From positions 1-64,000 of the forward strand of contig CAWHAE010000014.1 in assembly GCA_963827235.1 (NCBI GenBank): a stretch of DNA of 64,000 bases, in the 5' to 3' direction. Positions 4,565 through 60,228 of the stretch are shown piece by piece; within the stretch, counting starts at the first letter, position 1; the number at the start of each line of letters is the position of its first letter. The notes beneath the pieces were generated by a model. It saw only the letters and a list, made by a program, of their open reading frames with translations, had not been told where the DNA came from and searched no databases. The DNA comes from an uncultured bacterium (GTDB lineage: Bacteria; Chloroflexota; UBA5177; JANWHV01). A program made the position numbers and the translations under genes.

Positions 4565-4840
4565 GTGGGATGAGTACCGTTCGCGGGGGCCTGCAGAGAA
4601 TCGGCGCTGCTGTGAAGCCGGTGGCCCCGCAGATGGGAATGGACCTGCGAGCCGGTCGCTCAATGCTTCGGCAATAAGGCGGCCCGCTGCACCGGCGTTA
4701 TAGGGTGCTCGGACCACGAATTCGGCGCACGTTGCGTGCGACCGTCTCGGTCCGAGTCAAGGAGAACGCTAGTTCTCGAAGTCTGGGTGGCACCACGGGT
4801 AGGCCCCTCGTCCCGGCGGACGTTGGGCCTGTTGTATTTC
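4565..4840 (+). ncRNA. Trp-specific T-box riboswitch with terminator
   Basis: AGTA/GAA loop-E, AGAGA and GCTGTGAA apical motifs, specifier TGG at 4640-4642, T-box GGGTGGCACCACGG at 4785-4798, then an AGGCCC...GGGCCT hairpin with a T-rich tail; directly upstream of trpE. Confidence 0.93.
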
Positions 4841-4854
4841 TGGAGGTGCTGCCC

Positions 4855-6355
4855 ATGCGATGTACACCGTCGGTGGATGAAGTCCGAGACCGCCTTGCCG
4901 CCGAGGGGCGCGTGCCCGTCATGCGCGAGCTGCTGGCCGACTTCGATACCCCCGTTTCCGCCTACCTGAAGGTGGCGGGCACCGGTCGAGGCTTCCTGCT
5001 GGAGAGCGTGGAGAACGGCGAGCGCTCGTCCCGCTACAGCTTCCTCGGCGGGGAGCCGCGCACCACACTGACCTTCCAGGACGGCATCGCTCGCCTGGAC
5101 CGAGACGGACGCGTGAGCGCGCGAGTGGGCGTGCCCGGACCCGCTGGCCGCTCTGCGCCAGATGCTGGGCGCGCCGAGCCCTCGGGACGGCAGCTTGCCC
5201 CCGTTCTGCGGCGGGGCCGTGGGCTATCTGGGCTATGAGGTGGCAGCCTGCTTCGAGCGCCTGCCCGTGGGCGATAGAGTGCCGCCCGTGGTTCCCGACG
5301 CCCTTTTCATGCTGGCCGATCCGATCGTCGTGTTCGATCACGTGCTGCGCACCGTGCAGGTGATCACGACTGTCTCCCTCGACGAGGCGATCTCCGTCGA
5401 CGAGGCGTACGCGGCCGCGGAGAAGCGGATCGAGGACGTCTGCCTGCGGTTGGCTCGGCCCGTCGTGCCGCCTCCGCTCCTGCCGGCGCCCGCGGGCGAT
5501 CAGCCGGCGCCCGTGAGCAACGTGGGACAGGATCGACACGAGCAAGCGGTCCGGCGAGCGGTCGAGTACATCCATGCCGGGGACGCCATCCAGGTGGTCC
5601 TCTCCCAGCGGCTGGCTCGCCCCATGAGCGCCGGCGCGTTCACTCTCTACCGGGCCCTGCGTACCGTCAGCCCCTCGCCCTACATGGTGTATCTCAACTT
5701 CGGCAGCTTCTCCCTGGTCAGCGCCTCGGTGGAGACGTTGCTCCGGGTCGACGGCGGCAGTCTGTACTATCACCCGATCGCGGGCACGCGCCGCCGAGGC
5801 GCCACTCCCGATGAGGATGCGGCGTTGGAAGACGAGCTGCGACAAGACGTGAAGGAGAAGGCCGAGCATGTGATGCTGGTCGACCTGGGACGAAACGATC
5901 TCGGGCGCGTGGCCGAGACCGGCTCTGTCAACGTCACGGAGCTGATGGCAATCGAGCGCTTCTCGCACGTCATGCACATGGTGTCAACCATCGAAGCTCG
6001 CCTGGCCCCCGGTCTGGACGGTTTCGATGCCCTGCGCTCCGCCTTTCCGGCCGGCACGGTCTCGGGTGCGCCGAAGATCCGTGCCATGGAGATCATCGCG
6101 GAGCTCGAGCCCCACAGGCGCGGGCCCTACGCCGGCGCCGCCGGCTGGTTCGACTACTGCGGCGACCTGGACACGGCAATCACGATCAGGACGGCGCTGG
6201 TGCACGACGGCACGGTCTACATTCAGGCCGGCGGCGGCATCGTGGCCGATTCGAACCCCGCCGAGGAATGGAACGAGACCATGCACAAGGCCGGCGGCAT
6301 GCTGAGAGCCGTGGAGGCGGCCGAGCGCCTCGCCGATCGGCAGGCGTATGTATAG
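4855..6355 (+). CDS. trpE: Anthranilate synthase component I, apparent frameshift near 5115-5125
   Basis: GGAGGT RBS before ATG 4855; [24 protein letters not shown]; then [47 protein letters not shown]. Confidence 0.95.
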
Positions 6356-6413: not shown

Positions 6414-7052
6414 ATGCATCTCTTGATGATCGACAACTTCGACAGCTTTACGTACAACCTCGTGCAGTACCTGCGAGAGCTCGGCGCGACGGTGGACGTC
6501 GTGCGCAACGACGTCGATCGACCGCTACCTGAGTTGCTGGACGGGAAGGATGGCCTGGTTATCTCGCCGGGCCCGTGCGACCCCGCTCAGGCGGGCAACT
6601 CGATTGCCGCGTACCGCTACCTGGCGTCGAGCGATGTTCCCGCTATTCCAGTGCTGGGAGTCTGCCTGGGCCACCAGGCACTCGCCGCGGCCTTCGGCGG
6701 CAGCGTGGTGCGGGCCGCCGCGCCGATGCACGGCAAGACCTCGCTGGTCTGGCACGACGGATCGCCGCCGTTTGAAGGCACGCCGTCTCCTACCGAGGTC
6801 ATGCGCTACCACTCTTTGATCGTCTCGCCGGACAATCTGCCTGCTTGTCTCCGGGTCACCGCTCGAACCAGCGATGGCACGGTGATGGGCATCGCGCACC
6901 GCGCGTATCGCATGTTCGGCGTGCAGTTCCATCCCGAGTCCATCCTTACCGGAGACGGCAAAGCGATGCTTCGCTCGTTCCTCTCGGTCGTCGAACAAGC
7001 CGCCCAGGCACGACGGACGCCTGCCGGCAGACAGGTACAGGTGGCGCAGTGA
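6414..7052 (+). CDS. trpG: Anthranilate synthase component II (glutamine amidotransferase)
   Basis: IDNFDSFTYNL, SPGP, LGVCLGHQ, MHGKTS, RYHSL, QFHPES. Confidence 0.95.
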   Translation: MHLLMIDNFDSFTYNLVQYLRELGATVDVVRNDVDRPLPELLDGKDGLVISPGPCDPAQAGNSIAAYRYLASSDVPAIPVLGVCLGHQALAAAFGGSVVRAAAPMHGKTSLVWHDGSPPFEGTPSPTEVMRYHSLIVSPDNLPACLRVTARTSDGTVMGIAHRAYRMFGVQFHPESILTGDGKAMLRSFLSVVEQAAQARRTPAGRQVQVAQ

Positions 7053-8078
7053 TACGGGATCTCATTGCGCGCGTGGTTTCCGGGCACGACCTCAGCGAAG
7101 CGGAGGCGCGGCGGGCCATGCGGGCAATCATGGACGAAGAGGTCACGGCGGCCCAGCTGGCTGCCCTGATCACCGCGATGCGGATGAAAGGCGAATGCCT
7201 CGACGAAGTGGTGGGCTTTGCCTCCGTCATGCGTGACCGCGCGCTGGCGGTGAGGGCCGACGGCATCGGCATGGTAATCGATACCTGCGGCACCGGCGGA
7301 GACGGTCTGGGCTCTTTCAACGTCTCCACCGCCGCTGCCATCGTGGTCGCCGCTGCCGGCTGTGCCGTGGCGAAGCACGGTAACCGCGCGGCGAGCAGCA
7401 AGTGCGGCAGCGCCGACGTCCTGGAGGCGCTCGGCGTGCACCTGGCTATCAGCCCGGAGCAGGCCACAGCTGGGCTCGAGCGGATGGGCATAGCGTTCTT
7501 GCTGGCACCACTCTATCACCCGGCAACGCGCTTCGCCGTCGGTCCGCGGCGCGAGATCGGCATTCGCACGGTGTTCAACATCCTCGGTCCGCTCACAAAC
7601 CCGGCCCGTGTGAAATCGCAGGTCCTGGGGGTCGCCGATCCGTCCCTGGTGCCACTCATGGCGGCAGCCCTGCAGCGGTTGGGCTCGCGACGCGCCCTGG
7701 TCGTCTGCGGCATCCGACGGTCTGGACGAGCTGAGCATCAGCGGCCCGACGATCGTAAGCGAGCTTCACAACGGCAGGCTCGAGAGCTATGAGGTGTTGC
7801 CCGAGTCGGTCGGGCTCGCACGGGCCCCGCTCCAGGAAGTGCTGGGCGGAACCGCGCCGGAGAATGCCGTCATCTTGCGCGACGTGCTCGAGCGTCCTCG
7901 CCCCGGCGCTCGGAGGGACATCGTCGCACTGAACGCGGCGGCAGGATTGCTGGTCGGCGAGATGGTCGGCGATCTTGCCGAGGGCGTGCGCGTGGCAATC
8001 GACATTATGAGCTCGGGAAAGGCCCTGGACAAGCTGGAGAAATGGGTGAGGTACACGCAATGGCAGGCGGCTTCCTAG
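7049..8078 (+). CDS. trpD: Anthranilate phosphoribosyltransferase, apparent frameshift near 7713
   Basis: DTCGTGGDG, FNVST, AKHGNR, GSADVLEALG, RTVFNILGPLTNP; DGLDELS and LNAAAGL continue in another frame. Confidence 0.93.
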
Positions 8079-13968: not shown

Positions 13969-14045
<77 letters not shown>

Positions 14046-14106: not shown

Positions 14107-14174
14107 GTGCGATATTTGTGCGATGGCGGTTTTGGCCCTGCGGCGACAGGGGGCGGATGATGCGGCTAAGCACT

Positions 14175-14579
14175 ATGGGGAAAATCATTGAGGGCCTATT
14201 CATACGCAAGCTGAGAGACCTGAATCAGCAGATCATGTCGGTGGCCGAAGAGTACGATGCGTTGCGAGTTTCTGCCCTGCTACGCCAGTTGCTGCTCGAC
14301 GGTAACCCCCTGATGCACCAAGCCAGGAACGTCTATAAGCAACGCCATCCCGGCACTCCCTTGGATATCCAGTTGCAAGTCAACCGCTACGGCGCGCCGG
14401 ACAAGAAGGACTGGCGCCTCGACTACTTGATCTCACCTGCGTGCGCGCCCTCATATGCGCTGCGCAGCAGACGCCGCGCGCTCTACCTGCGCCTGGGTGG
14501 CCGAGCCTACTCCACCCCTCCACGGCTGAGGGGGTCTGGGGGAGACTGGCCAGGATTCCGGCAAGATAACGGCCATTGA
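14175..14579 (+). CDS. Hypothetical protein or gene remnant
   Basis: Protein-like N-terminal half (SALLRQLLLDGNPL), low-complexity C-terminal half, lower GC than its neighbours. Confidence 0.35.
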   Translation: MGKIIEGLFIRKLRDLNQQIMSVAEEYDALRVSALLRQLLLDGNPLMHQARNVYKQRHPGTPLDIQLQVNRYGAPDKKDWRLDYLISPACAPSYALRSRRRALYLRLGGRAYSTPPRLRGSGGDWPGFRQDNGH

Positions 14580-16266: not shown

Positions 16267-16883
16267 TCGAGGAACGTGTGTTGACCAGGCCAGCACGGCC
16301 AGATCCACTGCTATGCGCCCCTGGTTGCAGTGCACCCCCAATGGGCCGTTGCGGCGGGCGGACATCCTCGATTTGAATGCGCTCTGATGACCCTTCAGAA
16401 GGTCAAGGGGTGAGATTCGCGCACCTCAACCCGGTTTTCAGGGGGAATATGGTGCCGGTGAGGCCTCACCATCCCCGCCTCCGCTGCCGCTTGTGCGACA
16501 GTTGTGCGCTTTCACGTGTGGTCGGGCTCCGTCGCGGGTACTGGATCAGTGATCGCGTCGGAGACGCGCTCTCTGTCTGCTCACTTTCGAATGCCCGGCC
16601 GTTGACGGTCGGTCGCGCCCGCTGCACTCGGAGGGTGCCGACGATCAAGCAGAAGCTGGGTTTGCTCTCAGACGTCGACCGCTACGTGCTCTAGGTCCTC
16701 GCCAGCTGATTTGGATGTGATTGCCCCGGCTGCATCCCCGGGCCCGCAGGAGGTCCTCACTAGCCGGCGATACCACCGTGGGCTGCGCAGCGCAGCGTGG
16801 CCAGACGCTTGTGCGCCCGCAGCGAACAACACGCAGAAAGGAGACTGCCAACCTCTCTCCACTTTCAGCGTACGGCGCACCGG

Positions 16884-16919
16884 GGGGCTTGCGGCACGGC
16901 CCGGGAGGTGCCGTATAAT
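16884..16919 (+). promoter_or_regulatory. Rifamycin-associated element (RAE) with overlapping promoter
   Basis: GGGGCTTGCGGCACGGCCC (16884-16902) matches 18/19 of the recalled RAE consensus GGGGCTTGCGGCAAGGCCC; TTGCGG-19bp-TATAAT. Confidence 0.8.
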
Positions 16920-16960
16920 CGCCGGACGAGGCCAGAACCGACGGAAAGGGGACTCACGAC

Positions 16961-17750
16961 GTGCGAGTGGTGTTGTCGACGTATGGGGGGCGCGGTGACG
17001 TCGAACCGCTGGTGGCACTCGCGGTGGCTCCGCGGGCACTCGGCGCGGAGACGGTGGTGTGCGCGCCGCCGGACCGCACGGAGCGGCTGGCCGAGGTCGG
17101 CGTGCTGGTGGTGCCGGTCGGCCCCCCGGTGCGCCCGTTGCTGCACGGGGCGACGAGGCCGTCCGCGGCGGACGTGCCCCGGATCGCGGCCGAGTCGACG
17201 TCCGCACAGCTCGACGCGCTCGCCGCGGCTGCCGAGGGATGGGATGCGCTGGTGACGACCGGCCTGCTGCCGCCCGCGGCGAGCGCGCGGTCGGTGGCCG
17301 AGAAGCTCGGCATCCGCTATGTCTACGCCGCCTACTGTCCGATCTCTGATTCCAGGACCGCACCACCCTCCGATGCCGTTTCCCGGTCGGCCGCTCCCAC
17401 CCGAAGTGGCCGACAACCGGGTGCTCTGGGACCTGAACTCCCGGGTCGCGAACGACTTGTTCGGCGAGGCACTCAACACCCGCAGGGCCGCAATCGGCCT
17501 GCCACCGGTGGACAACGTCTACGACTACGCCTTCACTCGCCACCCCTGGCTGGCGGCGGACTCGAACCTGGGCCCTTTGGATGAGCCGACCGATGCCAAC
17601 ATCATGCAAACGGGGGCGTGGATCCTGCCTGACGAACGCCTGCTCCCGGCCGAGCTGCTCGCGTTCCTGGACGCCGGCACCCTACCAGTGCACGTGGGCT
17701 TCGGCAGCATGCCCACCCCGAAGGACATCGCCCAGGTCACCATCGCGCGC
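16961..17750 (+). pseudogene. rgt: GT1 glycosyltransferase, rifampin glycosyltransferase (Rgt)/GtfB-like; frameshift near 17350 and 3'-truncated
   Basis: MRVVLSTYGGRGDVEPLVALA..CAPPD, ARSVAEKLGIRY, PWLAAD, QTGAWILPDER, PVHVGFGSM; the UDP-binding HHGGAGT region is absent. Confidence 0.75.
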
Positions 17751-17969
17751 CGCGTCGTCCTGCTCACGGACAGGCGGCACAATCTCGGCCCGGCCCCGAC
17801 GTGGCGCGCGGCCTCGTGCTGCCGGCAGCCGCCCCGTTCGGGCGAGTGCCTTCCGCAGCAGATACTCGATCTGAGCGTTGGTGCTTCGCAGCTCATCGCC
17901 GGCCCAACGGGCCAGCGCGTCGTATACGGCAGGGTCCAGCCGAAGCATGAGGCTCTTGCGTTCAGCCAT
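17682..17969 (-). CDS. Arc/ribbon-helix-helix DNA-binding protein (SPFH-associated); the C-terminus reads into the rgt remnant
   Basis: MAERKSLMLRLDPAVYDALARWAGDELRSTNAQIEYLLRKAL. Confidence 0.8.
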   Translation of the reverse strand: MAERKSLMLRLDPAVYDALARWAGDELRSTNAQIEYLLRKALARTGRLPAARGRAPRRGRAEIVPPVREQDDAARDGDLGDVLRGGHAAEAHVHW

Positions 17970-17975
17970 TGGCCA

Positions 17976-18356
17976 TCACGCCGATCCACGGCACTGATAG
18001 AGTGAACCGGCATTGATCACCGGTTGAGTCGCGTGATCGTAGTACGGTACCACGAGCAGTTTCGACACCTTCGCCGCCTTGCGTTCCTCATCCGGTGCCA
18101 CGGCGCCGTGCTCGGCCAGGCGCGCCGGGGCCCCTTTCACCATGTCCGCCGCACCCGCTACAAACCGCTGACCCGTGGCCGGCACGGCGCCGGACTGCTG
18201 GTCGAGCGAGCAGAGAGCAGCCCTACCTGCCACACTGAGTCGGATTGCACCGCGCAAGACTGTCAGGCCGATCGTGAGCATCGGCAACCCGGGCAGGGTG
18301 TGCGCGGAATGCTCCTGTACTTGTAATATGGGCTCACTCACTGCGATCTCGTCCAT
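17976..18356 (-). pseudogene. SPFH/band-7 protein remnant with the internal domain deleted
   Basis: N-terminal TM segment joined to the degenerate C-terminal signature QRFVAGAADMV...DEERKAAKVSKLLVV...QPVINAGSLY. Confidence 0.75.
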
Positions 18357-18406
18357 GGTTCGTGCGACCACTGCGGATGCTTCCTCTGCACTGTAGTTGT
18401 CACCAA

Positions 18407-18426
18407 GATATCATTGTGATATCATT
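18407..18426. promoter_or_regulatory. Tandem GATATCATT boxes, candidate RHH operator
   Basis: GATATCATT at 18407 and 18418 (11-bp period, GATATC core) between divergent genes. Confidence 0.55.
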
Positions 18427-18450: not shown

Positions 18451-19440
18451 GTGACGGAACGCATGCTGGCATCCGATCGGCCGACGAATGGACGGCGACA
18501 CGGTCCGGCGCTCTCAGCCCGAGGTCTGACGAAGTGCTTCGGCGACCGCGTTGCGTTCCAGGATGTCTCGTTCGAGATCGGCTACGGCGAAGTCTTCGGC
18601 TTCCTCGGGCCGAACGGCGCCGGGAAGACGACGACCGTCCGGGCGTTGGGTACGCTCATTGCTCCGACCTCGGGCACGGCGACGGTGGCAGGCCTCGCTC
18701 TCACGCCGGAGAACGGCGAGCAGATTCGCCAGCGGATCGCGATCATGCCGGAAGCGCCGGGCCTCTACCTCCGCTTGACTGTCGCCGAGAACCTGGCGTG
18801 CGTCGCGGGGCTGTACGAGCTTCCCAGGGCGGCAGAGCGCATCGAGCGCGCTCTGCAGGCCGTCAATCTCGCCGGGCGGGCCGACGACGTCTGCGGCAAA
18901 TTGTCCAAAGGGTTACGCCAGCGCGTGAGTCTGGCCAGGGCGCTGCTCAACGATGCGGCTGTGCTCTTCCTCGACGAGCCGACGTCCGGCCTCGACCCGG
19001 TCGCCGCGCGCGATGTCCACGACCTGATCGGCGGGCTGCGTGAAAGGGGCGTGACGATCTTTCTCACCACGCACCGCCTCGAGGAGGCGGAACGCCTCTG
19101 CGACCGTGTCGCGCTCTTGAACACGACCTTGCGCGCTGTCGGCCGGCCCGATGACCTGCGTCGGCAGCTCTTTGCCAGGACGCTCACAGTCAGGACGCTA
19201 GGACCGCTCCCCGAGCCGGCCAGTGTCTTCAGCGGCGTCCCGGGCGCCGCCGGATGGCGCCAGGACGGCCCTGCCACCTATGTCCTGACGGTGACCGACG
19301 CCACGGCCGCAGCGCCTGCGCTTACCAGGGCGTTGGTCGCGGCCGGAGCTGACGTACTCTCGCTCGCCGAGTCGCGGCACTCGCTCGAAGACGTCTACCT
19401 TGAGCTGATCGGCGAGGACGTGGAGGCAGGCATCCAATGA
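18451..19440 (+). CDS. ABC-2/DrrA-type exporter ATP-binding protein
   Basis: GPNGAGKTT, LSKGLRQR, FLDEPTSGLDP, LTTH, SLEDVYL. Confidence 0.92.
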   Translation: MTERMLASDRPTNGRRHGPALSARGLTKCFGDRVAFQDVSFEIGYGEVFGFLGPNGAGKTTTVRALGTLIAPTSGTATVAGLALTPENGEQIRQRIAIMPEAPGLYLRLTVAENLACVAGLYELPRAAERIERALQAVNLAGRADDVCGKLSKGLRQRVSLARALLNDAAVLFLDEPTSGLDPVAARDVHDLIGGLRERGVTIFLTTHRLEEAERLCDRVALLNTTLRAVGRPDDLRRQLFARTLTVRTLGPLPEPASVFSGVPGAAGWRQDGPATYVLTVTDATAAAPALTRALVAAGADVLSLAESRHSLEDVYLELIGEDVEAGIQ

Positions 19441-20156
19441 ATATACACATGACCCGCGTGCGGGCCCTCTACCGCAAGGAACTCTGCGAGTACCGGCGCA
19501 GCCGCTTCATTGTGGTCACTATGGCGGCTATTCCACTGGGCCTCGTCATCTTCCCGCTGATCTTGGTCATCGCGCTCCCTGCGTCGGATGCGAATACACT
19601 TGGTGGCGATCCGCTGGAGATCCTCCTGGGGATCCCGGCTCTCGTGCCGTCGGTTGTCGCTACCTACGCGGTGGTCGGGGAGCGGGAGCAGGGCACGCTC
19701 GAGCCCGTGCTCACGACACCCATTCGGCGCGACGAGCTGGTGCTGGCCAAGGCCCTGGCGGCCCTCGTGCCGACGCTGACGGTCGCCTATGCGGTGTTCG
19801 CCCTTTACGTCGCCTGTACCAAGCTCTTCGCCCAGCCGGCCGTGGCGTCGGCGGTGCTGCAAGGCCCGGACCTGCTCGCTCAGGTCGTCTTCACGCCGCT
19901 CCTCGCCACCTTGTCCATCTGGGTCGGCATCGCGATCTCCACGCGCTCGAGCGATGTCCGCGTCGCTCAGCAGCTCGGAGCGATCTCGGGTCTCCCCGTC
20001 ATCCTGGTGGTCTATCTCATGACCTTCAACGTAATTCACGCGACGCTTGGCCTGACCCTTGGCGCCGGGGCAGCGCTCCTTTTCCTCGACGGAATGGGCT
20101 GGCGGTTGGTGTCCGCCGCCTTCGACCGCGAACGACTTATCACAGGTAGCCGATGA
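19437..20156 (+). CDS. ABC-2 exporter permease
   Basis: Multiple TM segments, VGEREQGTLEPVLTTPI..LAK, FDRERL. Confidence 0.88.
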   Translation: MNIHMTRVRALYRKELCEYRRSRFIVVTMAAIPLGLVIFPLILVIALPASDANTLGGDPLEILLGIPALVPSVVATYAVVGEREQGTLEPVLTTPIRRDELVLAKALAALVPTLTVAYAVFALYVACTKLFAQPAVASAVLQGPDLLAQVVFTPLLATLSIWVGIAISTRSSDVRVAQQLGAISGLPVILVVYLMTFNVIHATLGLTLGAGAALLFLDGMGWRLVSAAFDRERLITGSR

Positions 20157-29148: not shown

Positions 29149-30369
29149 ATGCTCGACAGGCTGGCCGCTCCCACCACCGCTCGCCACCACACCGGTCCCC
29201 GCACCGCCCAGGGCAAAGCCGCCTCCAGCCGCAACGCCTGCACCCACGGCCTGCTCAGTCCCGACCCCGTCGCCACCCCCTACGAGCAGCCCGAAGCCTG
29301 GCACGCCTATCGCGACGCCATCGTGCACGACCTCGCACCGTACGGCGACCTGGAGACCATCCTGGCCGAGCGCATCGCCCTGCTGCACTGGCGGCAGGCG
29401 CGCATCGCCCGCCACGAGTGCGCCCTGATCACGCAGGACCAGGTGCGGCTCTCCCGGGAGCAGGCCGAGCGGCGCTTCGCCGTGTGCGAGGACCGCCCCT
29501 CCACCATGGCGGAGCTGGATGCCGAGCGGCGGTCCTGCAACGACCGCCTGGCGCTGCTGGAGCGCTGGGCGGTGCTGGAGCCGGAGGACGTGCTCACCGT
29601 GGCGGCGGTGCACAGTCTGCTGGAGGCGATGCTCGCCCCGCTGGGGCCGCAGGAGGCCACGGTACCGCTGCTGCTGGACGCGACGGCGACGGAGAGCCTG
29701 GAGCACTACTGTGGGCGGCAGCGCTGGACCCGGTTGCTGGTGGAGGCGGCGCTGGAACCGATCTGCGGGGTTGGCACCAGCGTGGCGACGATGCACGCCG
29801 TGGCGGTGCGGCGGGCGGGGGAGGCGGTGTCGGCGCTGGCCCGAGCCCGGTCCGACCAGGAGATCGGCGTGGTGGCGGCCACGCACGGGCTGGCCGAGCT
29901 GCGCGTGCTGGAGCGGCTGGCGCGCTACGAAGCGCACCTCTCGCGGGAGATGCAGCGCACCAGGCGCGAGTTGGCGGAGGTCCGTGCCGAGCGCCGTGCG
30001 GCAGAGCACAGCGGAAATTGCGAAACGAATTCGCGCCCTGAGGGCACTGCCGCACCCGCCGGCGCTGCCGTCATCCGCGCGGCAGAGCACCAGGAAAATT
30101 GCGAAACGAATTCGCCACTCGTCGGGCCCGCCGCTCCCGCACTACCACGTCGGCGACGCACTGCAGTGGGTACCTCGGCCGGCCCGTCCCCTGCCAGCCG
30201 ACCTGACTCCGCGGCACAATCCTCCGCTGCACCACCTCCGGCCGCAGCCGGCCCGTGCCCTGCCATGCTGCCGCAGCTGCAGGCTACCGTTCCCGCGCCC
30301 GCCTCATCACAACCGCGACCCACTGCGATGGGTTCCCCGACCGGCCCGTGCCCTGCCGTCCTGCCTTAG
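29149..30369 (+). CDS. Hypothetical protein of the TGPRTxxGKxxSSxNAxxHGL type
   Basis: GAGGT RBS; TGPRTAQGKAASSRNACTHGL, ETILAERIA..WR..R, LARYEAHLSR, repeated NCETNS. Confidence 0.75.
   Translation: MLDRLAAPTTARHHTGPRTAQGKAASSRNACTHGLLSPDPVATPYEQPEAWHAYRDAIVHDLAPYGDLETILAERIALLHWRQARIARHECALITQDQVRLSREQAERRFAVCEDRPSTMAELDAERRSCNDRLALLERWAVLEPEDVLTVAAVHSLLEAMLAPLGPQEATVPLLLDATATESLEHYCGRQRWTRLLVEAALEPICGVGTSVATMHAVAVRRAGEAVSALARARSDQEIGVVAATHGLAELRVLERLARYEAHLSREMQRTRRELAEVRAERRAAEHSGNCETNSRPEGTAAPAGAAVIRAAEHQENCETNSPLVGPAAPALPRRRRTAVGTSAGPSPASRPDSAAQSSAAPPPAAAGPCPAMLPQLQATVPAPASSQPRPTAMGSPTGPCPAVLP
29998..30115 (+). repeat. Two-copy direct repeat, 81-bp period
   Basis: GCGGCAGAGCAC at 29998 and 30079; identical AAATTGCGAAACGAATTCGC at 30015 and 30096. 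Confidence 0.85.
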
Positions 30370-30388
30370 CTGGAGGCTTCTGTTCCCG
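30159..30388 (+). repeat. Degenerate tandem repeats at the 3' end of the ORF
   Basis: Three copies of CCGGCCCGT(G/C)CCCTGCC with partly shared flanks. Confidence 0.7.
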
Positions 30389-35317: not shown

Positions 35318-35646
35318 GCAGGCCCACCACCTGCTGGCGGTGTTGCCGGGAGCGTCGGGATAAGACAGGCTCACGGTGTCCTGCCCGCTGGTGCGCCGCG
35401 TGATGCCTGCCAAGGAGCTTGAGCCGGCAACAGTCGCAAGGAATGTGGAACGCCTGCCTCGCCAGCTGGGCGGCAAACGGTCCGTGTGTATTGGCGATAT
35501 TGATCGTCCGCTGCGACACATTGATCATTATGCAACGACCATCCATAGTGGGATGAACAGAGCGACCCGCGCGGGCGGTGCTGCGTAGTGGGCCCGGGCC
35601 TCGACCTACCGGGGCACCGGAGCGGGAGTTCAGGGAGGGATCCGCG

Positions 35647-36816
35647 ATGCCCATCCGAGTATGTCTGGTCACCGTTCACGGCATAGGCTTCCAGCACGCC
35701 CCGCTCACTGACGGCACGCCCGGGTACGCCGACCCTCTGCACGACCACCTGAAGTCCGTCCTGGGCGACTTGCTCGGCGACGACCCCAATCGCCGCGATG
35801 GCGGGCCGGTCTACGTGCAGAGCAACTGGCCGCCCGGGTCGCTCAGCACCGAGCCGGCCCTTGCTCGCCTGGGCACGTGGGACCCGGCGAATCGCGACAG
35901 GATCCAGGATCCGAAGCCGCCTCTGATCGGCGGCAGCGGATCGATCGCCCACGTGGCCCTCGTCTACTCGCACCTGGAAGACGTTCGCTTCCTGCTTGGA
36001 TCGGCCGCCGAAAGCTTGGCCCGAGTGACGTTCTCGCACGGCGGATACTCTTCGATCGGGTCGGCTGTCAAGACCGGAGTGCAGGACGTCTGGGCCATCC
36101 TCACCCACCATAGCGATCAGTCGGCGATCACCACACCCAGTCTGCGGATACGTAGGCTGAGTGACGCGCCGGCGGAGCGCGACGATGCGCTGCCGGCTGC
36201 ACCCGCCGCTGAACCCGGATCCGGTGCGCCCAGCGTGATCGGTCGTCTCGACGACGACGTCGCGGCCTACGTGGCCCGCAACGACCTGCGAGAGCGCGTG
36301 CGCAGCTTCATCCGCGAGGCCATGCTCAGACTCTGCTGTCGCGACGACGTGCCGCTCGTGGTAGTCAACGCTCATAGTCAGGGCACCGTAGTCTGCTATG
36401 ACGTTCTTCGCCAGCTACCGCTCTCTGCGGCGGCCAAGCTCACATGGCTCGCCACGTCGGGCAGCCCCCTGCGCAAGTTTGCCGACTTCTTCCAGTGGGG
36501 CGCAGACGCCAGCTGTTTGGCGCAGACGCGGTGGACGAATTTCTACGACCAGCGCGATCCGGTCGCCGATCCGCTGCAACCCGGTCCGGGATGGCGGTTA
36601 GGAGACGCCCTGCCGCCCCAAGACGGCACGACCAGCATGTTCTACGCGGTGGACGCCGGCATGGGCTCCCGGCTTCCGGTGGCGATCACGGACGTACCGG
36701 TGGACAACATGCAATTCAGCAAAGGTGGCGGGCTTCAGGCGCACAACTACTGGGACAATGAGAAAGAGGTCGTGGGTGCGCTGGCAGCCGGCCTCAGGAG
36801 CATCCTGGGCGCTTGA
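35647..36816 (+). CDS. Uncharacterised alpha/beta-hydrolase-fold protein
   Basis: VHGIG oxyanion loop, AHSQG elbow, GSPL, NFYD..DPVA, AHNYW. Confidence 0.7.
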   Translation: MPIRVCLVTVHGIGFQHAPLTDGTPGYADPLHDHLKSVLGDLLGDDPNRRDGGPVYVQSNWPPGSLSTEPALARLGTWDPANRDRIQDPKPPLIGGSGSIAHVALVYSHLEDVRFLLGSAAESLARVTFSHGGYSSIGSAVKTGVQDVWAILTHHSDQSAITTPSLRIRRLSDAPAERDDALPAAPAAEPGSGAPSVIGRLDDDVAAYVARNDLRERVRSFIREAMLRLCCRDDVPLVVVNAHSQGTVVCYDVLRQLPLSAAAKLTWLATSGSPLRKFADFFQWGADASCLAQTRWTNFYDQRDPVADPLQPGPGWRLGDALPPQDGTTSMFYAVDAGMGSRLPVAITDVPVDNMQFSKGGGLQAHNYWDNEKEVVGALAAGLRSILGA

Positions 36817-37632: not shown

Positions 37633-38646
37633 TCAGGGCACCGCGAAGGTCAGGCGGAAGGGTCCATGTACCCTCACCATCCTGCCAGCCTGGCTGAGGT
37701 CGATCTCCGGAATGTCCAGGGTGGCCGATCCACCATGGGCCAAGGGCGGCACGATCCAGACCACCGGGCATGTGTCGTTACCGCAGACTCCCGTCCAGGA
37801 GCCAGCGATTGCCCTGCCGTTTAGGTATGCGCGCGGCAGCAAGGGCAGCGAGCTCGCCGGAACTCCGATCGACCCATGCAGATATCCGCCCACCGGCCAC
37901 AGCATCAACCAGGTGATACTTATCAGTACACCGCCGGCGAAGGTCCGGCTGTGTAGCGGCACGTCTCGACTCTGGGCGAGCGCGCGGAGGTTCAGCGGCA
38001 CCTTGATGGCTGGGAGAAGACGCAGGGGTGGCAGGTGTTGTGGTCCCGCCGGAAGCCGCTCTACCCAAGGCTGTAGCAGCACCACTCTTGTCGCGCGCGG
38101 TACTGTGCCGTAGACTGCCAGGCAGTTTTCACTGGGGCGATCGAATGGCAGCCAATCCGGCAGCAATCCGGACGCCCGCTTGCACGTGCTCGTCGATCCG
38201 GTGTTGAGCCAGCCGCCCGGAACGGCAGTCAGCTTGAAGCCCATGACCTTGGTCGTCCTGGCACTCGATGCTTCGGTCAGATGGTAGGCGACGTAAGTAT
38301 GCTCGCCGTCCACAGCCACACGATCGACAGTTACCGGTCCGCGCGGTTGGCCCGGAGCCGGCCGCGCGACCAACCCGATGCTCTCGAGATAGTGCTCGAA
38401 CGGTATCGAGCCCTCGAGATCCGTGCCGCCTTGGTCGCGGCTGGCCACGAGCGCGATGAGCGTGCCCGAGGCGGCCACGAGCAGCAACAGAAGTCCCACC
38501 AACACCAGGACGCGCATGCCGGAGTGCCTCGACTCGCCGCCTCCTGCCGGCATGGATGCGAGCCTGCGGTCGCCGTATCTGCCGTAATCGCCGAGACTCG
38601 TGCCGGCTGGTTCCATGATCCACTGCTGCGGGCGGGCCGCTACCAC
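37633..38646 (-). CDS. Membrane-anchored hypothetical protein
   Basis: One TM segment followed by a beta-rich domain; GAGGGG RBS before GTG; overlaps the upstream stop. Confidence 0.6.
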   Translation of the reverse strand: MVAARPQQWIMEPAGTSLGDYGRYGDRRLASMPAGGGESRHSGMRVLVLVGLLLLLVAASGTLIALVASRDQGGTDLEGSIPFEHYLESIGLVARPAPGQPRGPVTVDRVAVDGEHTYVAYHLTEASSARTTKVMGFKLTAVPGGWLNTGSTSTCKRASGLLPDWLPFDRPSENCLAVYGTVPRATRVVLLQPWVERLPAGPQHLPPLRLLPAIKVPLNLRALAQSRDVPLHSRTFAGGVLISITWLMLWPVGGYLHGSIGVPASSLPLLPRAYLNGRAIAGSWTGVCGNDTCPVVWIVPPLAHGGSATLDIPEIDLSQAGRMVRVHGPFRLTFAVP

Positions 38647-39470
38647 GTGTTCCCCTCGAGCGGAGCTTGCTGCCGAGAACTGCGTGGCCCGCTGCTTTCG
38701 CCAGCCGTAAGCAGCTCGAGCACCGCATCGGCGAGGCTCAGTCTTTCCGTGAGGGTTCCACACTGACCGAGCTCGCCATCGTCAGTATCGAGTCGCCAAG
38801 CAAGCGCCTGTTCGATTAGCGCCCGCCATTCCGGCAGCTCGTCGGCCGCCCACGAAGCAGCGCGCTTCTTGGAAGTCTGTTCGCCGAAACGGCAGCTACA
38901 CATGCAGCGGCACTGGGTCAGCACGGCGAATGCTTGCCCTTTCGCGCCGCCGCCGTCTTCCAGCCACCGGCGCAGCTCTCGCGCTTTGGCGCGGATGGAG
39001 AGGATATGCTCCTGGCGCGTGATCGGCTCGATGAGGTCGCGCGCCGGCGGACCGTGGAGCGGGAGGCTCACTTCGCGGACCAGATACCAGCTCAGGATCC
39101 GCTCGGGACGACTAACCGTGCGATGGAACGGTTCACCTGGGCTAACGTTCACGACCTCGCTCCGCCTCGACCGCACTGCGGCCAAAGCGTCCACGGATAC
39201 ATAGCATACTTCGATCCGGTCGGACCACTCGACGTAGTCTTTGGCAAAGGAGGCGTGCATACGACCCAGTTCCCCGTACTCGCGCTCGTCGAGCTCGTCG
39301 GCCAGCACGGCGGTGAGGTCCACGTCGCTCACTCCCTCGTCGAAGTCGCCCGTCACAAGCGAGCCGTCCAGGTACAGTCCGACCAGCTTCGCGCCGAGCA
39401 CGGACAGCATACGCTCGTGTAGACGTTGGAGCAGAACGTTGACACGCGGAAAGCTGGTGGGTTGGCACAT
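38640..39470 (-). CDS. AadA/ANT-like nucleotidyltransferase (NTase + DUF4111)
   Basis: LVGLYLDGSLVTGDF...SDVD, LHGPPAR, VLTQCR, SKKRAA.WA. Confidence 0.85.
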   Translation of the reverse strand: MCQPTSFPRVNVLLQRLHERMLSVLGAKLVGLYLDGSLVTGDFDEGVSDVDLTAVLADELDEREYGELGRMHASFAKDYVEWSDRIEVCYVSVDALAAVRSRRSEVVNVSPGEPFHRTVSRPERILSWYLVREVSLPLHGPPARDLIEPITRQEHILSIRAKARELRRWLEDGGGAKGQAFAVLTQCRCMCSCRFGEQTSKKRAASWAADELPEWRALIEQALAWRLDTDDGELGQCGTLTERLSLADAVLELLTAGESSGPRSSRQQAPLEGNTW

Positions 39471-39590
39471 CGCACCTTCCACGGTACTCCTGTTCTGGCG
39501 TTCCGTCGACCGACGGCTTGCCGCGGCAGATGGGCGAAGTCCGGCGGGCAGCCGAATGGTGCCCGCCGGACGGTTGCACGCTCTGGCCGG

Positions 39591-41506: not shown

Positions 41507-42064
41507 GTGACGGCTGATCTACGCTGGCGAGTGATAGTGTTGCAAGTGGTCATGGTTGTGGTGCTTGCCTTCGGTACCGGCTTCTTGTATTGGGCGGCCA
41601 ACTTCACGCATTCGAACGTACGGGACCAGCTGGTGGCACAGGACATCACGTTCCCGGCCGCCAACAGCGCGTCCGTCAACGCACTGCCGCCTGCCGACGC
41701 GGCGGCCATGCGGCAGTACGCTGGGCAGGCCCTGACCAACGGCGACCAGGCGCTCGCCTGGGCCAATCACTATATGGCGGTCCATCTGCAGGAGATCGGC
41801 GGCGGCAAGACCTACTCGCAAGTGAGCGCGCTGTCCATGGCCGCACCCAAGAATCAGGCACTGGCGAACGAAGTGCAGACGATATTCCGTGGTGAGACGC
41901 TTCGCGGGCTGCTCCTCAATGCTTGGGGCTGGTGGAACGTAGGGACCTACGCCTTCTACGCCGCGGTCGGCCTCACGGTAGCCACGGTGGCCGTGTTCAT
42001 GGCACTCCTGTACGAGCTGTTCCTTGCACCGGGACTCCGACCTCGCGGGTCGTCGTCCGTCTGA
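41507..42064 (+). CDS. Conserved hypothetical membrane protein
   Basis: AAAGGA RBS; two TM segments; YAGQ, GGKTY, FRGETLRGLLLNAWGW. Confidence 0.75.
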   Translation: MTADLRWRVIVLQVVMVVVLAFGTGFLYWAANFTHSNVRDQLVAQDITFPAANSASVNALPPADAAAMRQYAGQALTNGDQALAWANHYMAVHLQEIGGGKTYSQVSALSMAAPKNQALANEVQTIFRGETLRGLLLNAWGWWNVGTYAFYAAVGLTVATVAVFMALLYELFLAPGLRPRGSSSV

Positions 42065-58293: not shown

Positions 58294-60228
58294 ATGGCAG
58301 GACAAAGACCAGGCGGCGGCAATCGGGGCAACGGCAGACGTCCGGGTGGTGGCGGTCGTCCTCGGCCGTCCGGCAGGCGGGGGACATCGAGGTGGACCCG
58401 GTGCCGTCGGCTTACTGGAGAGCAGCGATGACTCCAGATCGTCGGTCGATAGACCGCATTCTATCGAGCTGCCTTCCGTCATGACGGTCAAGGAGCTGGC
58501 AGACTCGCTGGCCGTCGAGCCGGTGCAGGTCATGAAGCTCCTGATCAAGAACGGCATGATGGCCACGATCAACCAGGAGATTGACTACGATACCGGCGCA
58601 ATCGTGGCCTCGGAGCTGGGCGTGGAAGCCTCGGAGCAGAAGCGGGCCGAGGTCGAGGTGGACGCGCGAGCCGAGGCTTCGCATGGCTCGTCTGTCCTGG
58701 ACGAGGACCCGGCCAAGTTGAGGCCGCGTCCTCCGGTGGTCACGATCATGGGTCACGTCGACCACGGCAAGACGTCACTGCTCGACGCGATCCGCCAAAC
58801 CAACGTCGTCGCCGGAGAAGCTGGAGGAATCACCCAGCATATCGGAGCCTATCAGGTCGAGAAAGAGCGGGAGGAAGATCACCTTCCTCGACACGCCCGG
58901 TCACCAGGCATTCACCGCTATGCGGGCTCGTGGCGCGCAGGTGACCGACCTAGTGATCATCGTGGTGGCGGCGGACGACGGTGTCATGCCACAGACGAGA
59001 GAGGCGATCGCGCATGCGCGCGCCGCCCGAGTGCCCATCATCGTCGCAATCAACAAGATCGACACGCCCGGCGCCAACCCCGATCGGGTGAAGCAGGAGC
59101 TTGCGCAGGTTGGCGTCCAGGTCGAGGAGTACGGTGGAGACGTAGTCTGCGTCGAGGTATCGGCCAAGAAGAAAGTCGGGCTGCAGGAGCTGCTCGACAT
59201 GATTCTCCTGGTCACGGAGATCCAGGACCTGAAGGCCAATCCGGATCGGCCGGCGTTGGGCACCGTCGTAGAAGCACGTCTTGATCGCATGAAGGGCTCG
59301 ATGTGTACGGTACTGGTGCGCAGCGGCACGCTTCGACTCGGCGATACCGTCGTCGTGGGCAGCGTCTACGGCCGGATCAGGGCCATGTATAACGATCGTG
59401 GCAAAGCGATCAAGGTGGCCGGACCGTCCTTCCCAGTCGAGATCCTCGGGCTGCTCGACGTGCCCGCGGCAGGCGACACCCTCCAGGTGTTCGGCGACGA
59501 GAAGTATGCGCGAACGCTTGCCGCGGAGCGGGCGCGTGAAAAGCGCGCGGAGTCGCTACAGCCTACCAAGAAGCTTGGCCTGGCCGACCTGTCGTCGTTC
59601 ATACAGGCCGGTCAGATGAAAGAGCTCAATATCGTCCTCAAGGCAGACGTCAAGGGCTCCGTTGAAGCGGTGAAGAGCGAGTTGGAGAAGCTTTCCAACG
59701 AGACCGTGAAGCTAAGCGTGCTCCTGGCCGACACCGGACCGGTCACCGAGTCCGACATCCAACTGGCCGCGGCTTCGCAGGCAATCGTGGTCGGCTTCAA
59801 CGTGCGCCTGGACCCTGGGGCCAAAAACGCCGTGACGGCCACTGGCGTGGACGTTCGCTTCTACGACATCATCTACAAGCTGACGGAGGACATCGAGGCC
59901 GCTCTGCGAGGTATGCTCGATCCATCGTATCAGGATGTCGTGACTGGGCACGCCGAGGTGCTGCAGATCTTCCCGGCCTCCAAGACCGAGAAGGCAGCTG
60001 GATCGCGGATAGTCGGACGGCACTGTGCACCGGGGGGACAATGTCCGGGTGCTGCGAAACGACAAGGTGGTCGGCGAGACCAAGATCACGTCGCTTCGGC
60101 GCGGGCGCGATGACGCGCGTGAGGTGAACGCCGGCTTCGAGTGCGGCATCGTGCTGGATCAGTACAACGATTTCGAAGTCGGAGACGTTCTCGAGACCTG
60201 GACGCGGGAAAAGGTAATATCTGCATGA
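58294..60228 (+). CDS. infB: Translation initiation factor IF-2, apparent frameshifts near 58365, 58868 and 60017
   Basis: GGAGG RBS; [48 protein letters not shown] across three frames. Confidence 0.93.

Follow-up and report, generated by a model that had tools for sequence, protein, structure and literature searches.

The window analysed here, a 64,000-nt (64 kb) stretch of a 461,890-bp contig, carries a 19-bp inverted repeat of the rifamycin-associated element (RAE) type, GGGGCTTGCGGCACGGCCC, read directly from the sequence at 16884-16902 (no strand assigned). The repeat overlaps a forward -35-like hexamer, TTGCGG (16889-16894, +), which is followed after 19 bp by the -10 hexamer TATAAT (16914-16919, +), one of three occurrences of TATAAT in the window. 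Further downstream, a purine-rich stretch resembling a ribosome-binding site (16946-16952, +; read directly) lies 8 nt 5' of a GTG start codon at 16961 whose frame translates to MRVVLSTYGGRGDVEPL. The start codon is 41 nt downstream of the -10 and 58 nt from the end of the RAE. The original prediction had described this arrangement, an RAE overlapping TTGCGG, then TATAAT and a GT1 gene beginning about 40 bp on, and each element was found in its place. The promoter escaped our sigma-70 scan because the scan accepts only spacers of 16-18 bp.

The gene behind the promoter belongs to the Rgt/Gtf family of GT1 glycosyltransferases and is present in two pieces. The 5' piece (16961-17345, +) matches positions 1-125 of the Rgt profile NF000354 (E 4.5e-32) as well as PF03033 and GtfB (E 2.9e-35), while the second piece (17349-17745, +) lies in another frame and matches positions 131-263 (E 1.3e-36). 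Together they cover positions 1-263 of the 411 in the profile. Homology ends at about 17745, where the 3' end of a ribbon-helix-helix gene in convergent orientation is reached. The predicted truncation is therefore real, and to it must be added a frameshift near 17342-17349. A complete GT1 protein of this kind has two domains and about 410 aa; here the last ~150 residues are gone, including the conserved HHGGAGT block. In GT-B enzymes the missing C-terminal half is the one that binds the UDP-sugar, and its loss with these ~150 codons means that no active enzyme would be made.

The frameshift itself was not taken as proof of a pseudogene, since frame breaks also affect housekeeping genes of the window: infB is spread over three frames (58346-60225), and trpE (4678-6352), trpD (6776-8075) and rluA (1718-2652) over two each. 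These splits indicate a contig with frequent single-base indel errors in which frameshifts are unreliable, and the glycosyltransferase indel, perhaps along with some of the substitutions, may be such an assembly error. Decay appears better documented by the truncation, by departures at 13 of 98 conserved columns (the median over 94 rows is 3, and only five distant rows exceed the window gene) and by an excess of changes at first and second codon positions over intact pairs (e.g. 0.20/0.11 vs 0.14/0.07).

A tRNA-Pro(GGG) gene (13969-14045, +), the only hit of the Rfam search, stands at the border between the core trp/aroC/trpS block and an accessory region. From this tRNA to about 22700 we observed GNAT, ABC-2, SnoaL and metallo-hydrolase genes as well as several remnants, and the region looks like a landing zone for accessory genes; no integrase or attachment repeat was seen in it, and the 20 largest direct-repeat families listed held no attachment-site repeat or duplicated tRNA end. 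These genes, together with ribbon-helix-helix and SPFH genes, are the neighbours of the glycosyltransferase. The small ribbon-helix-helix gene running into its truncated end (17682-17969, -; PF07878 at E 0.0011, below cut-off) is 75% identical over 40 aa to a Nonomuraea sequence. Next to it lies a remnant of an SPFH-domain gene (17976-18407, -), identified by tblastn to annotated SPFH proteins, which is far shorter than its relatives and matches Nonomuraea best (62%, residues 70-138). Beyond, an ABC-2 transporter pair (18451-20156, +) shares 70% nucleotide identity over 1.66 kb with a pair of Planotetraspora that lies 1.9 kb downstream of an RAE-glycosyltransferase locus, the only such case among 92 loci compared, and possibly came from the same donor region as the cassette. 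A tblastx screen for shared flanks gave mostly GC noise, of which only this ABC pair and the upstream leader described below survived blastn.

Host markers point to Chloroflexota

The evidence on the host genome comes from the 64 kb window. For NusA, all 11 taxon-named matches (among 120 listed) were Chloroflexota, the closest at 90%, and for AroC the 12 named matches comprised 10 Chloroflexota, one Dormibacteraeota and one Sphingomonadaceae, with no Actinomycetota. The two genes flank the RAE site on opposite sides of one contig and point to a Chloroflexota host, in agreement with the non-actinobacterial, Chloroflexota-like lineage proposed before. GC content reaches 0.71 at 17001-18000, with about 0.65 in the surroundings, and third-position GC is 0.85-0.90 against 0.84-0.87 in trpB, aroC and trpS; no clear island signal or compositional break was found in GC composition. 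An assembly chimera, or an actinobacterial host, could draw support from the error-prone contig but is highly improbable given Chloroflexota markers on both sides, the absence of a compositional break, decay in two adjacent genes and a nearest protein, among 5107 matches, that is only 77% identical to the window gene.

The promoter is of the RAE type

The RAE of Actinomycetota was reportedly defined by Spanogiannopoulos et al. in 2014. Later papers describe a 19-bp inverted repeat that precedes arr, rox, rph, rgt and helR genes and is needed for induction (10.1101/2021.05.10.443488, 10.1101/2021.05.10.443476, PMC8655204, PMC13322982, PMC10719064), and its overlap with the -35 is already described in PMC10719064. 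The consensus used was derived here from the promoters of annotated helR, rph and these glycosyltransferase genes. The window RAE has one mismatch to the copies upstream of Streptomyces clavuligerus helR and of rph in Streptomyces sp. BHT-5-2, where the same promoter stands 5' of the rph gene. Over 131 nt around the RAE the alignment identity with DNA upstream of Streptomyces glycosyltransferase genes is ~80%, and the first 75-76 nt are 79-83% identical to helR upstream regions of S. clavuligerus and Nonomuraea gerenzanensis. That the same DNA precedes helR and rph in actinomycetes supports, at the level of sequence, an assignment to the RAE type.

Among 80 loci kept from at least 359 confirmed in a GTDB scan (at least 601 stretches), 56 had an RAE within two mismatches, four had one with three or four, and 20 had none. 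The spacer is 19 bp in all 56 RAE-bearing relatives, so that the spacing called unusual in the original prediction is in fact the norm and the anomaly lies in the perfect TATAAT: the -10 is CAGAAT in 52 of the 56, and its first base across 72 RAE promoters is C in 71 and T in none. The forward -35 is identical in 49 of 56, while position 14 of the repeat, C in the window, is A in every one. In 51 of the 56 the RAE lies 55-60 nt from the start codon, with a mode at the 58 nt seen in the window. On a 69-column profile built from these relatives the window site scored 63.9 bits, above 6 of the 56 profile members; the runner-up in the window reached -41.6 and the best site in 20 base shuffles -38.4, which means that the match is not due to chance and bears out the predicted RAE. 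The site thus resembles the actinomycete element in its position over the -35 of an rgt-like gene, in the DNA shared with helR and rph and in its distance to the gene, and differs from it in the Chloroflexota host, the A14 to C change, TATAAT in place of CAGAAT and the broken gene.

Origin of the segment

Of the 13 taxon-named homologues of the window gene, 11 were from Actinomycetota, one from Gemmatimonadales and one from Pantanalinema, and the 80 GTDB loci kept comprised 79 from Actinomycetota and one Candidatus Dormibacteria MAG. No Chloroflexota-labelled homologue was present among the 13 named matches or these 80 of at least 359 confirmed loci, a scope in which Chloroflexota carriers may have been overlooked. 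By blastn, a stretch of about 1 kb (16724-17745) that takes in the non-coding leader shares 72-82% identity with actinobacterial DNA in the best loci. In eight loci the matches start at 16724-16728, which marks the left edge of the transferred block: 16724-16824 (-) is a decayed upstream leader with the first codons of a divergent DUF47-like gene (blastn), 70% identical to the leader of one locus (L081, E 4e-7). The divergent ORF of another locus (L040) matches PF01865 weakly (E 3.5e-4, below cut-off). Since the identity extends into the non-coding leader, transfer is the best reading, and of the two origins that the original prediction had offered the horizontal one fits the DNA. No phage homologue was found among 50,697 phage records.

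A first quick tree of 94 rows combined the window gene, its break read as X, with 19 of 120 homologues and 74 of the 87 locus genes (12 that had no intact ORF and one fusion being left out); it placed the window gene inside a 31-row clade of mostly actinobacterial MAG genes. This clade (99% SH-aLRT) was not recovered with support in a 38-row bootstrap tree, where the window took no supported position. Approximately unbiased (AU) tests rejected a grouping of the four non-actinobacterial rows in one clade (p 0.0008) and were borderline for a grouping of the window gene with Dormibacteria (p 0.0375). The groups were named after the first tree had been seen and the trees have no outgroup or independent root, so the direction of transfer, which we infer to be out of Actinomycetota, is read from the distribution and from the non-coding DNA in common.

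Taken together, these data make it likely that the locus is a decaying cassette of the RAE-rgt type, horizontally acquired from an actinobacterium into a Chloroflexota chromosome. By analogy with the literature on the family, in the donors the RAE would overlap the -35 of a weak promoter, with a 19-bp spacer and a C-first -10, that is induced by rifamycin, and the GT1 enzyme, also in this subgroup, would inactivate rifamycin by glycosylation. The cassette would have moved into the Chloroflexota genome with its promoter, and a deletion in the new host would then have removed the last ~150 codons with the sugar-nucleotide-binding half. With a consensus -10 and a broken palindrome, the present promoter is most likely an unregulated or silent one of the sigma-70 type and not a rifamycin sensor. 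The relic would thus represent a complete actinobacterial resistance cassette, promoter included, that reached a Chloroflexota genome and then decayed, a finding of modest significance.

Promoter and gene have drifted alike

According to the original prediction the promoter had survived while the gene was truncated, a contrast that does not hold up. The 69-nt core of the window promoter is at most 83% identical to any relative, against at most about 82% for the whole transferred segment, and its 12 differences from the consensus are more than most members show. It departs at two of the 12 columns that are invariant in the 56 relatives, namely 14, in the palindrome, and 31, the first base of the -10, so that it has neither the intact palindrome core nor the C-first -10. 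From this comparison the promoter is preserved no better than the gene, with comparable drift in both. Two or more changes in the 12 invariant columns have a probability of 0.05-0.25 at 3-8% drift, and drift is therefore enough to explain the promoter changes.

Both changes in the -10, however, end at TATAAT, a joint outcome that is unlikely under pure drift and hints at adaptation to the new host. Selection after the transfer could have made the promoter constitutive because the actinobacterial activator was missing, the gene being expressed for a while and broken later. We hold this to be a realistic possibility, though short of probable. Both -10 changes go toward the sigma-70 consensus, to a T at -12 that none of the 72 RAE promoters has, and the palindrome has lost an invariant base. 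Against this, the pattern was noticed post hoc in a single sequence from an error-prone contig, the drift estimate above does not call for selection, and CATAAT occurs naturally in one relative (L058), from which one transition could suffice. Such a history is compatible with the decaying transfer and differs from it only on why the bases changed.

In two Streptomyces loci (L011 and L012, 3025-3130) the RAE promoter and the first rgt-like codons were observed directly 5' of rph or helR. Here too an RAE promoter appears to have outlasted an rgt-like gene, as would follow from loss of the glycosyltransferase and re-use of its promoter.

Rgt and the glycopeptide enzymes

NF000354 is the best NCBIfam match for both pieces of the gene, at 112 and 127 bits against a cut-off of 800. 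As none of the 22 full-length relatives reaches this cut-off (298-609 bits), it must be narrow, and the RAE-bearing Streptomyces genes tested also fall below it. The gene is therefore like Rgt in its profile match and in the RAE upstream, and differs in lacking the last third and in belonging to a subgroup of low profile scores for which rifamycin activity is putative. The only solved relatives found are the glycopeptide enzymes GtfA, GtfB and GtfD (PDB 1pn3, 1iir, 1rrv), which belong to the same GT1 family and are inseparable from it in trees.

A glycopeptide-type or other natural-product glycosyltransferase that does not inactivate rifamycin appears unlikely, although besides the structures and the shortfall from the Rgt cut-off some evidence favours it. 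JGI labels many of the matches 'vancomycin aglycone glucosyltransferase'. In the quick tree the 31-row clade of the window also held L005 (3001-4224), a Nonomuraea gerenzanensis gene next to P450, halogenase and vanY genes, and the AU test did not reject the pairing of the two (p 0.23; the placement tree is unrooted and no characterised Rgt was sampled), so that the grouping with glycopeptide enzymes, which the original prediction had named as refuting, is neither shown nor rejected. However, L005, the one cluster-encoded example inspected, which sits among biosynthetic genes, has no RAE and is sister (support 99/99) to a stand-alone gene that bears one, L021 (5560-6786). This sister relation suggests that the glycopeptide enzyme, on a long branch, arose among RAE-associated genes. 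In addition, 56 of the 80 relatives kept have an RAE, two of them directly followed by helR, and no biosynthetic cluster genes were seen among the window ORFs examined, where the glycosyltransferase has non-biosynthetic neighbours and an RAE. The Rgt cut-off carries little against a rifamycin enzyme here, as it also excludes the RAE-bearing Streptomyces genes.

RAE copies outside Actinomycetota

10.1101/2021.05.10.443488, PMC12802891 and PMC8655204 place the RAE in Actinobacteria only, and the full-text literature searched, which omits most subscription papers and theses, yielded no published RAE outside Actinobacteria. Four of five non-actinobacterial plasmid homologues were inspected (Gemmatirosa, Microvirga, Devosia and Methylocalor). 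The Gemmatirosa kalamazoonensis plasmid 2 (Gemmatimonadota; L006, 2870-2940) and a Microvirga lotononidis plasmid (Alphaproteobacteria; L007, 2930-2970) each have an intact Rgt/Gtf-family gene preceded by a three-mismatch RAE core and, at a 19-bp spacing, a C-first -10, and the Dormibacteria MAG has a four-mismatch core with CACAAT 5' of an intact gene. The window copy is hence not the sole RAE outside Actinomycetota, and as the Gemmatirosa and Microvirga copies are in named isolates they can be tested. Several other candidates were discarded: the homologues of Devosia and Methylocalor are without an RAE (5 and 8 mismatches), an RAE-like match on an Ensifer plasmid is due to chance (it lies at the end of a coding region and has no -10), and on inspection no RAE-like site was found at the Tistrella plasmid match or at a Streptomyces match (L098).

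Four copies from Acidimicrobiia and Dormibacteria (L013, L015, L016 and L046) read GTC in place of GGG in the left arm and have CACAAT as the -10. Standing 5' of mostly intact genes, they would form a distinct RAE variant. Their close relatives L014, L017, L018 and L050 are without an RAE.

A possible mirror promoter at the RAE

On the opposite strand the palindrome provides a second -35-like hexamer, GTGCCG in the window (16892-16897, -), TTGCCG in 49 of the 56 relatives and beginning with TTG in all of them. Exactly 19 bp from this reverse -35 a TAnnnT hexamer is present in 51 of the 56, against 0, 0, 0 and 1 at spacers of 16, 17, 18 and 20 bp. The window has the mirror-image hexamer TACGCT (16867-16872, -) at this distance, a putative reverse -10 that retains the key T, A and T. 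Over all 72 RAE promoters (L001-L097) the mirror TAnnnT occurs in 61, 11-16 nt upstream of the RAE, against a background of 0.4% per position, and it holds 5' of helR in Rhodococcus and Tsukamurella. In Gemmatirosa it reads TATAGT, differing at the three variable positions and keeping the three key ones. Microvirga, the Dormibacteria MAG and nine others lack it, in some cases because it is shifted by one base. As close relatives have inherited the block as a whole, the weight rests on the distant cases, which are few in number.

This recurrence suggests that the RAE consists of two back-to-back promoters. In its full form our model, which is tentative and on balance rather doubtful, treats the RAE as a palindromic -35 used in common by two sigma-70 promoters that stand back to back, each having a 19-bp spacer, the forward one weak through the invariant C at -12 and the reverse one with the TAnnnT -10; rifamycin-trapped RNA polymerase would be the sensor and no activator would be missing. 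A dimeric activator, with a divergent gene beyond the element, would be a possible alternative. The mechanism was called unknown as late as 2026 in PMC12802891, which also describes a factor-free rifampicin sensor made of two convergent promoters at Bacillus subtilis helD/pps. That system has in common with our model the opposed promoters of unequal strength and RNA polymerase as the sensor. It differs in that its promoters are convergent and need spacing, whereas the RAE pair, as read from the DNA, would be divergent with overlapping -35 hexamers; since steric overlap abolished induction in Bacillus, a simple copy of that mechanism at the RAE is argued against. No description of a reverse promoter at the RAE was found in the full-text literature searched, from which most subscription papers and theses are omitted.

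Thesis research by the group behind the RAE reportedly deals with an extended motif, and we therefore regard the novelty of the mirror architecture as provisional. Were the model true, the switch would be portable across phyla (Gemmatimonadota, Alphaproteobacteria, Dormibacteria, Chloroflexota) and the window copy would be a naturally occurring variant, mutated at two bases on which the promoter balance depends.

Such a mechanism bears on the second origin offered by the original prediction, that RAE-type sensing worked or still works in this lineage. Needing RNA polymerase alone, through back-to-back sigma-70 promoters, the element would be inducible in any phylum and the gene would be a recently lost member of a resident system. 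Besides the mirror hexamer, including its key bases in the window, and the factor-free Bacillus sensor of PMC12802891, this reading gains from Gemmatirosa, which keeps 16 of 19 core positions, CAGAAT and the mirror TATAGT despite a diverged outer flank (4/13) and right spacer (4/11), and from Microvirga and the Dormibacteria MAG, which keep the core and C-first -10 before intact genes. The last two, however, are without the mirror hexamer, and in the 56 close relatives the columns around the hexamer show equal conservation, so that shared descent can explain much; the convergent layout and steric constraint of the Bacillus pair also count against it. In the window itself A14 and the C at -12, both otherwise invariant, are lost and the gene is dead. 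With the gene decaying and no Chloroflexota homologue found in the named matches and loci kept, we regard sensing in this lineage as improbable and retain the decaying transfer as the preferred reading.

The leads on the RAE mechanism, through the mirror -10, and on its phylum range outweigh the relic itself. Through the natural Gemmatirosa and Microvirga copies, the mirror -10 and the invariant C at -12, the way in which rifamycin resistance is induced can be tested directly and at low cost.

Elsewhere in the window, coding-like ORFs without a Pfam match were observed at 14118-14579 (+), 35578-36816 (+), 37633-38763 (-) and 41507-42064 (+), and short direct repeats with 69-93 nt spacings (families D1, D2, D5 and D6) at 29985-30388. 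A nucleotidyltransferase gene at 38643-39482 (-), with an AadA C-terminal domain (PF13427, E 1.6e-13), resembles aminoglycoside adenylyltransferases.
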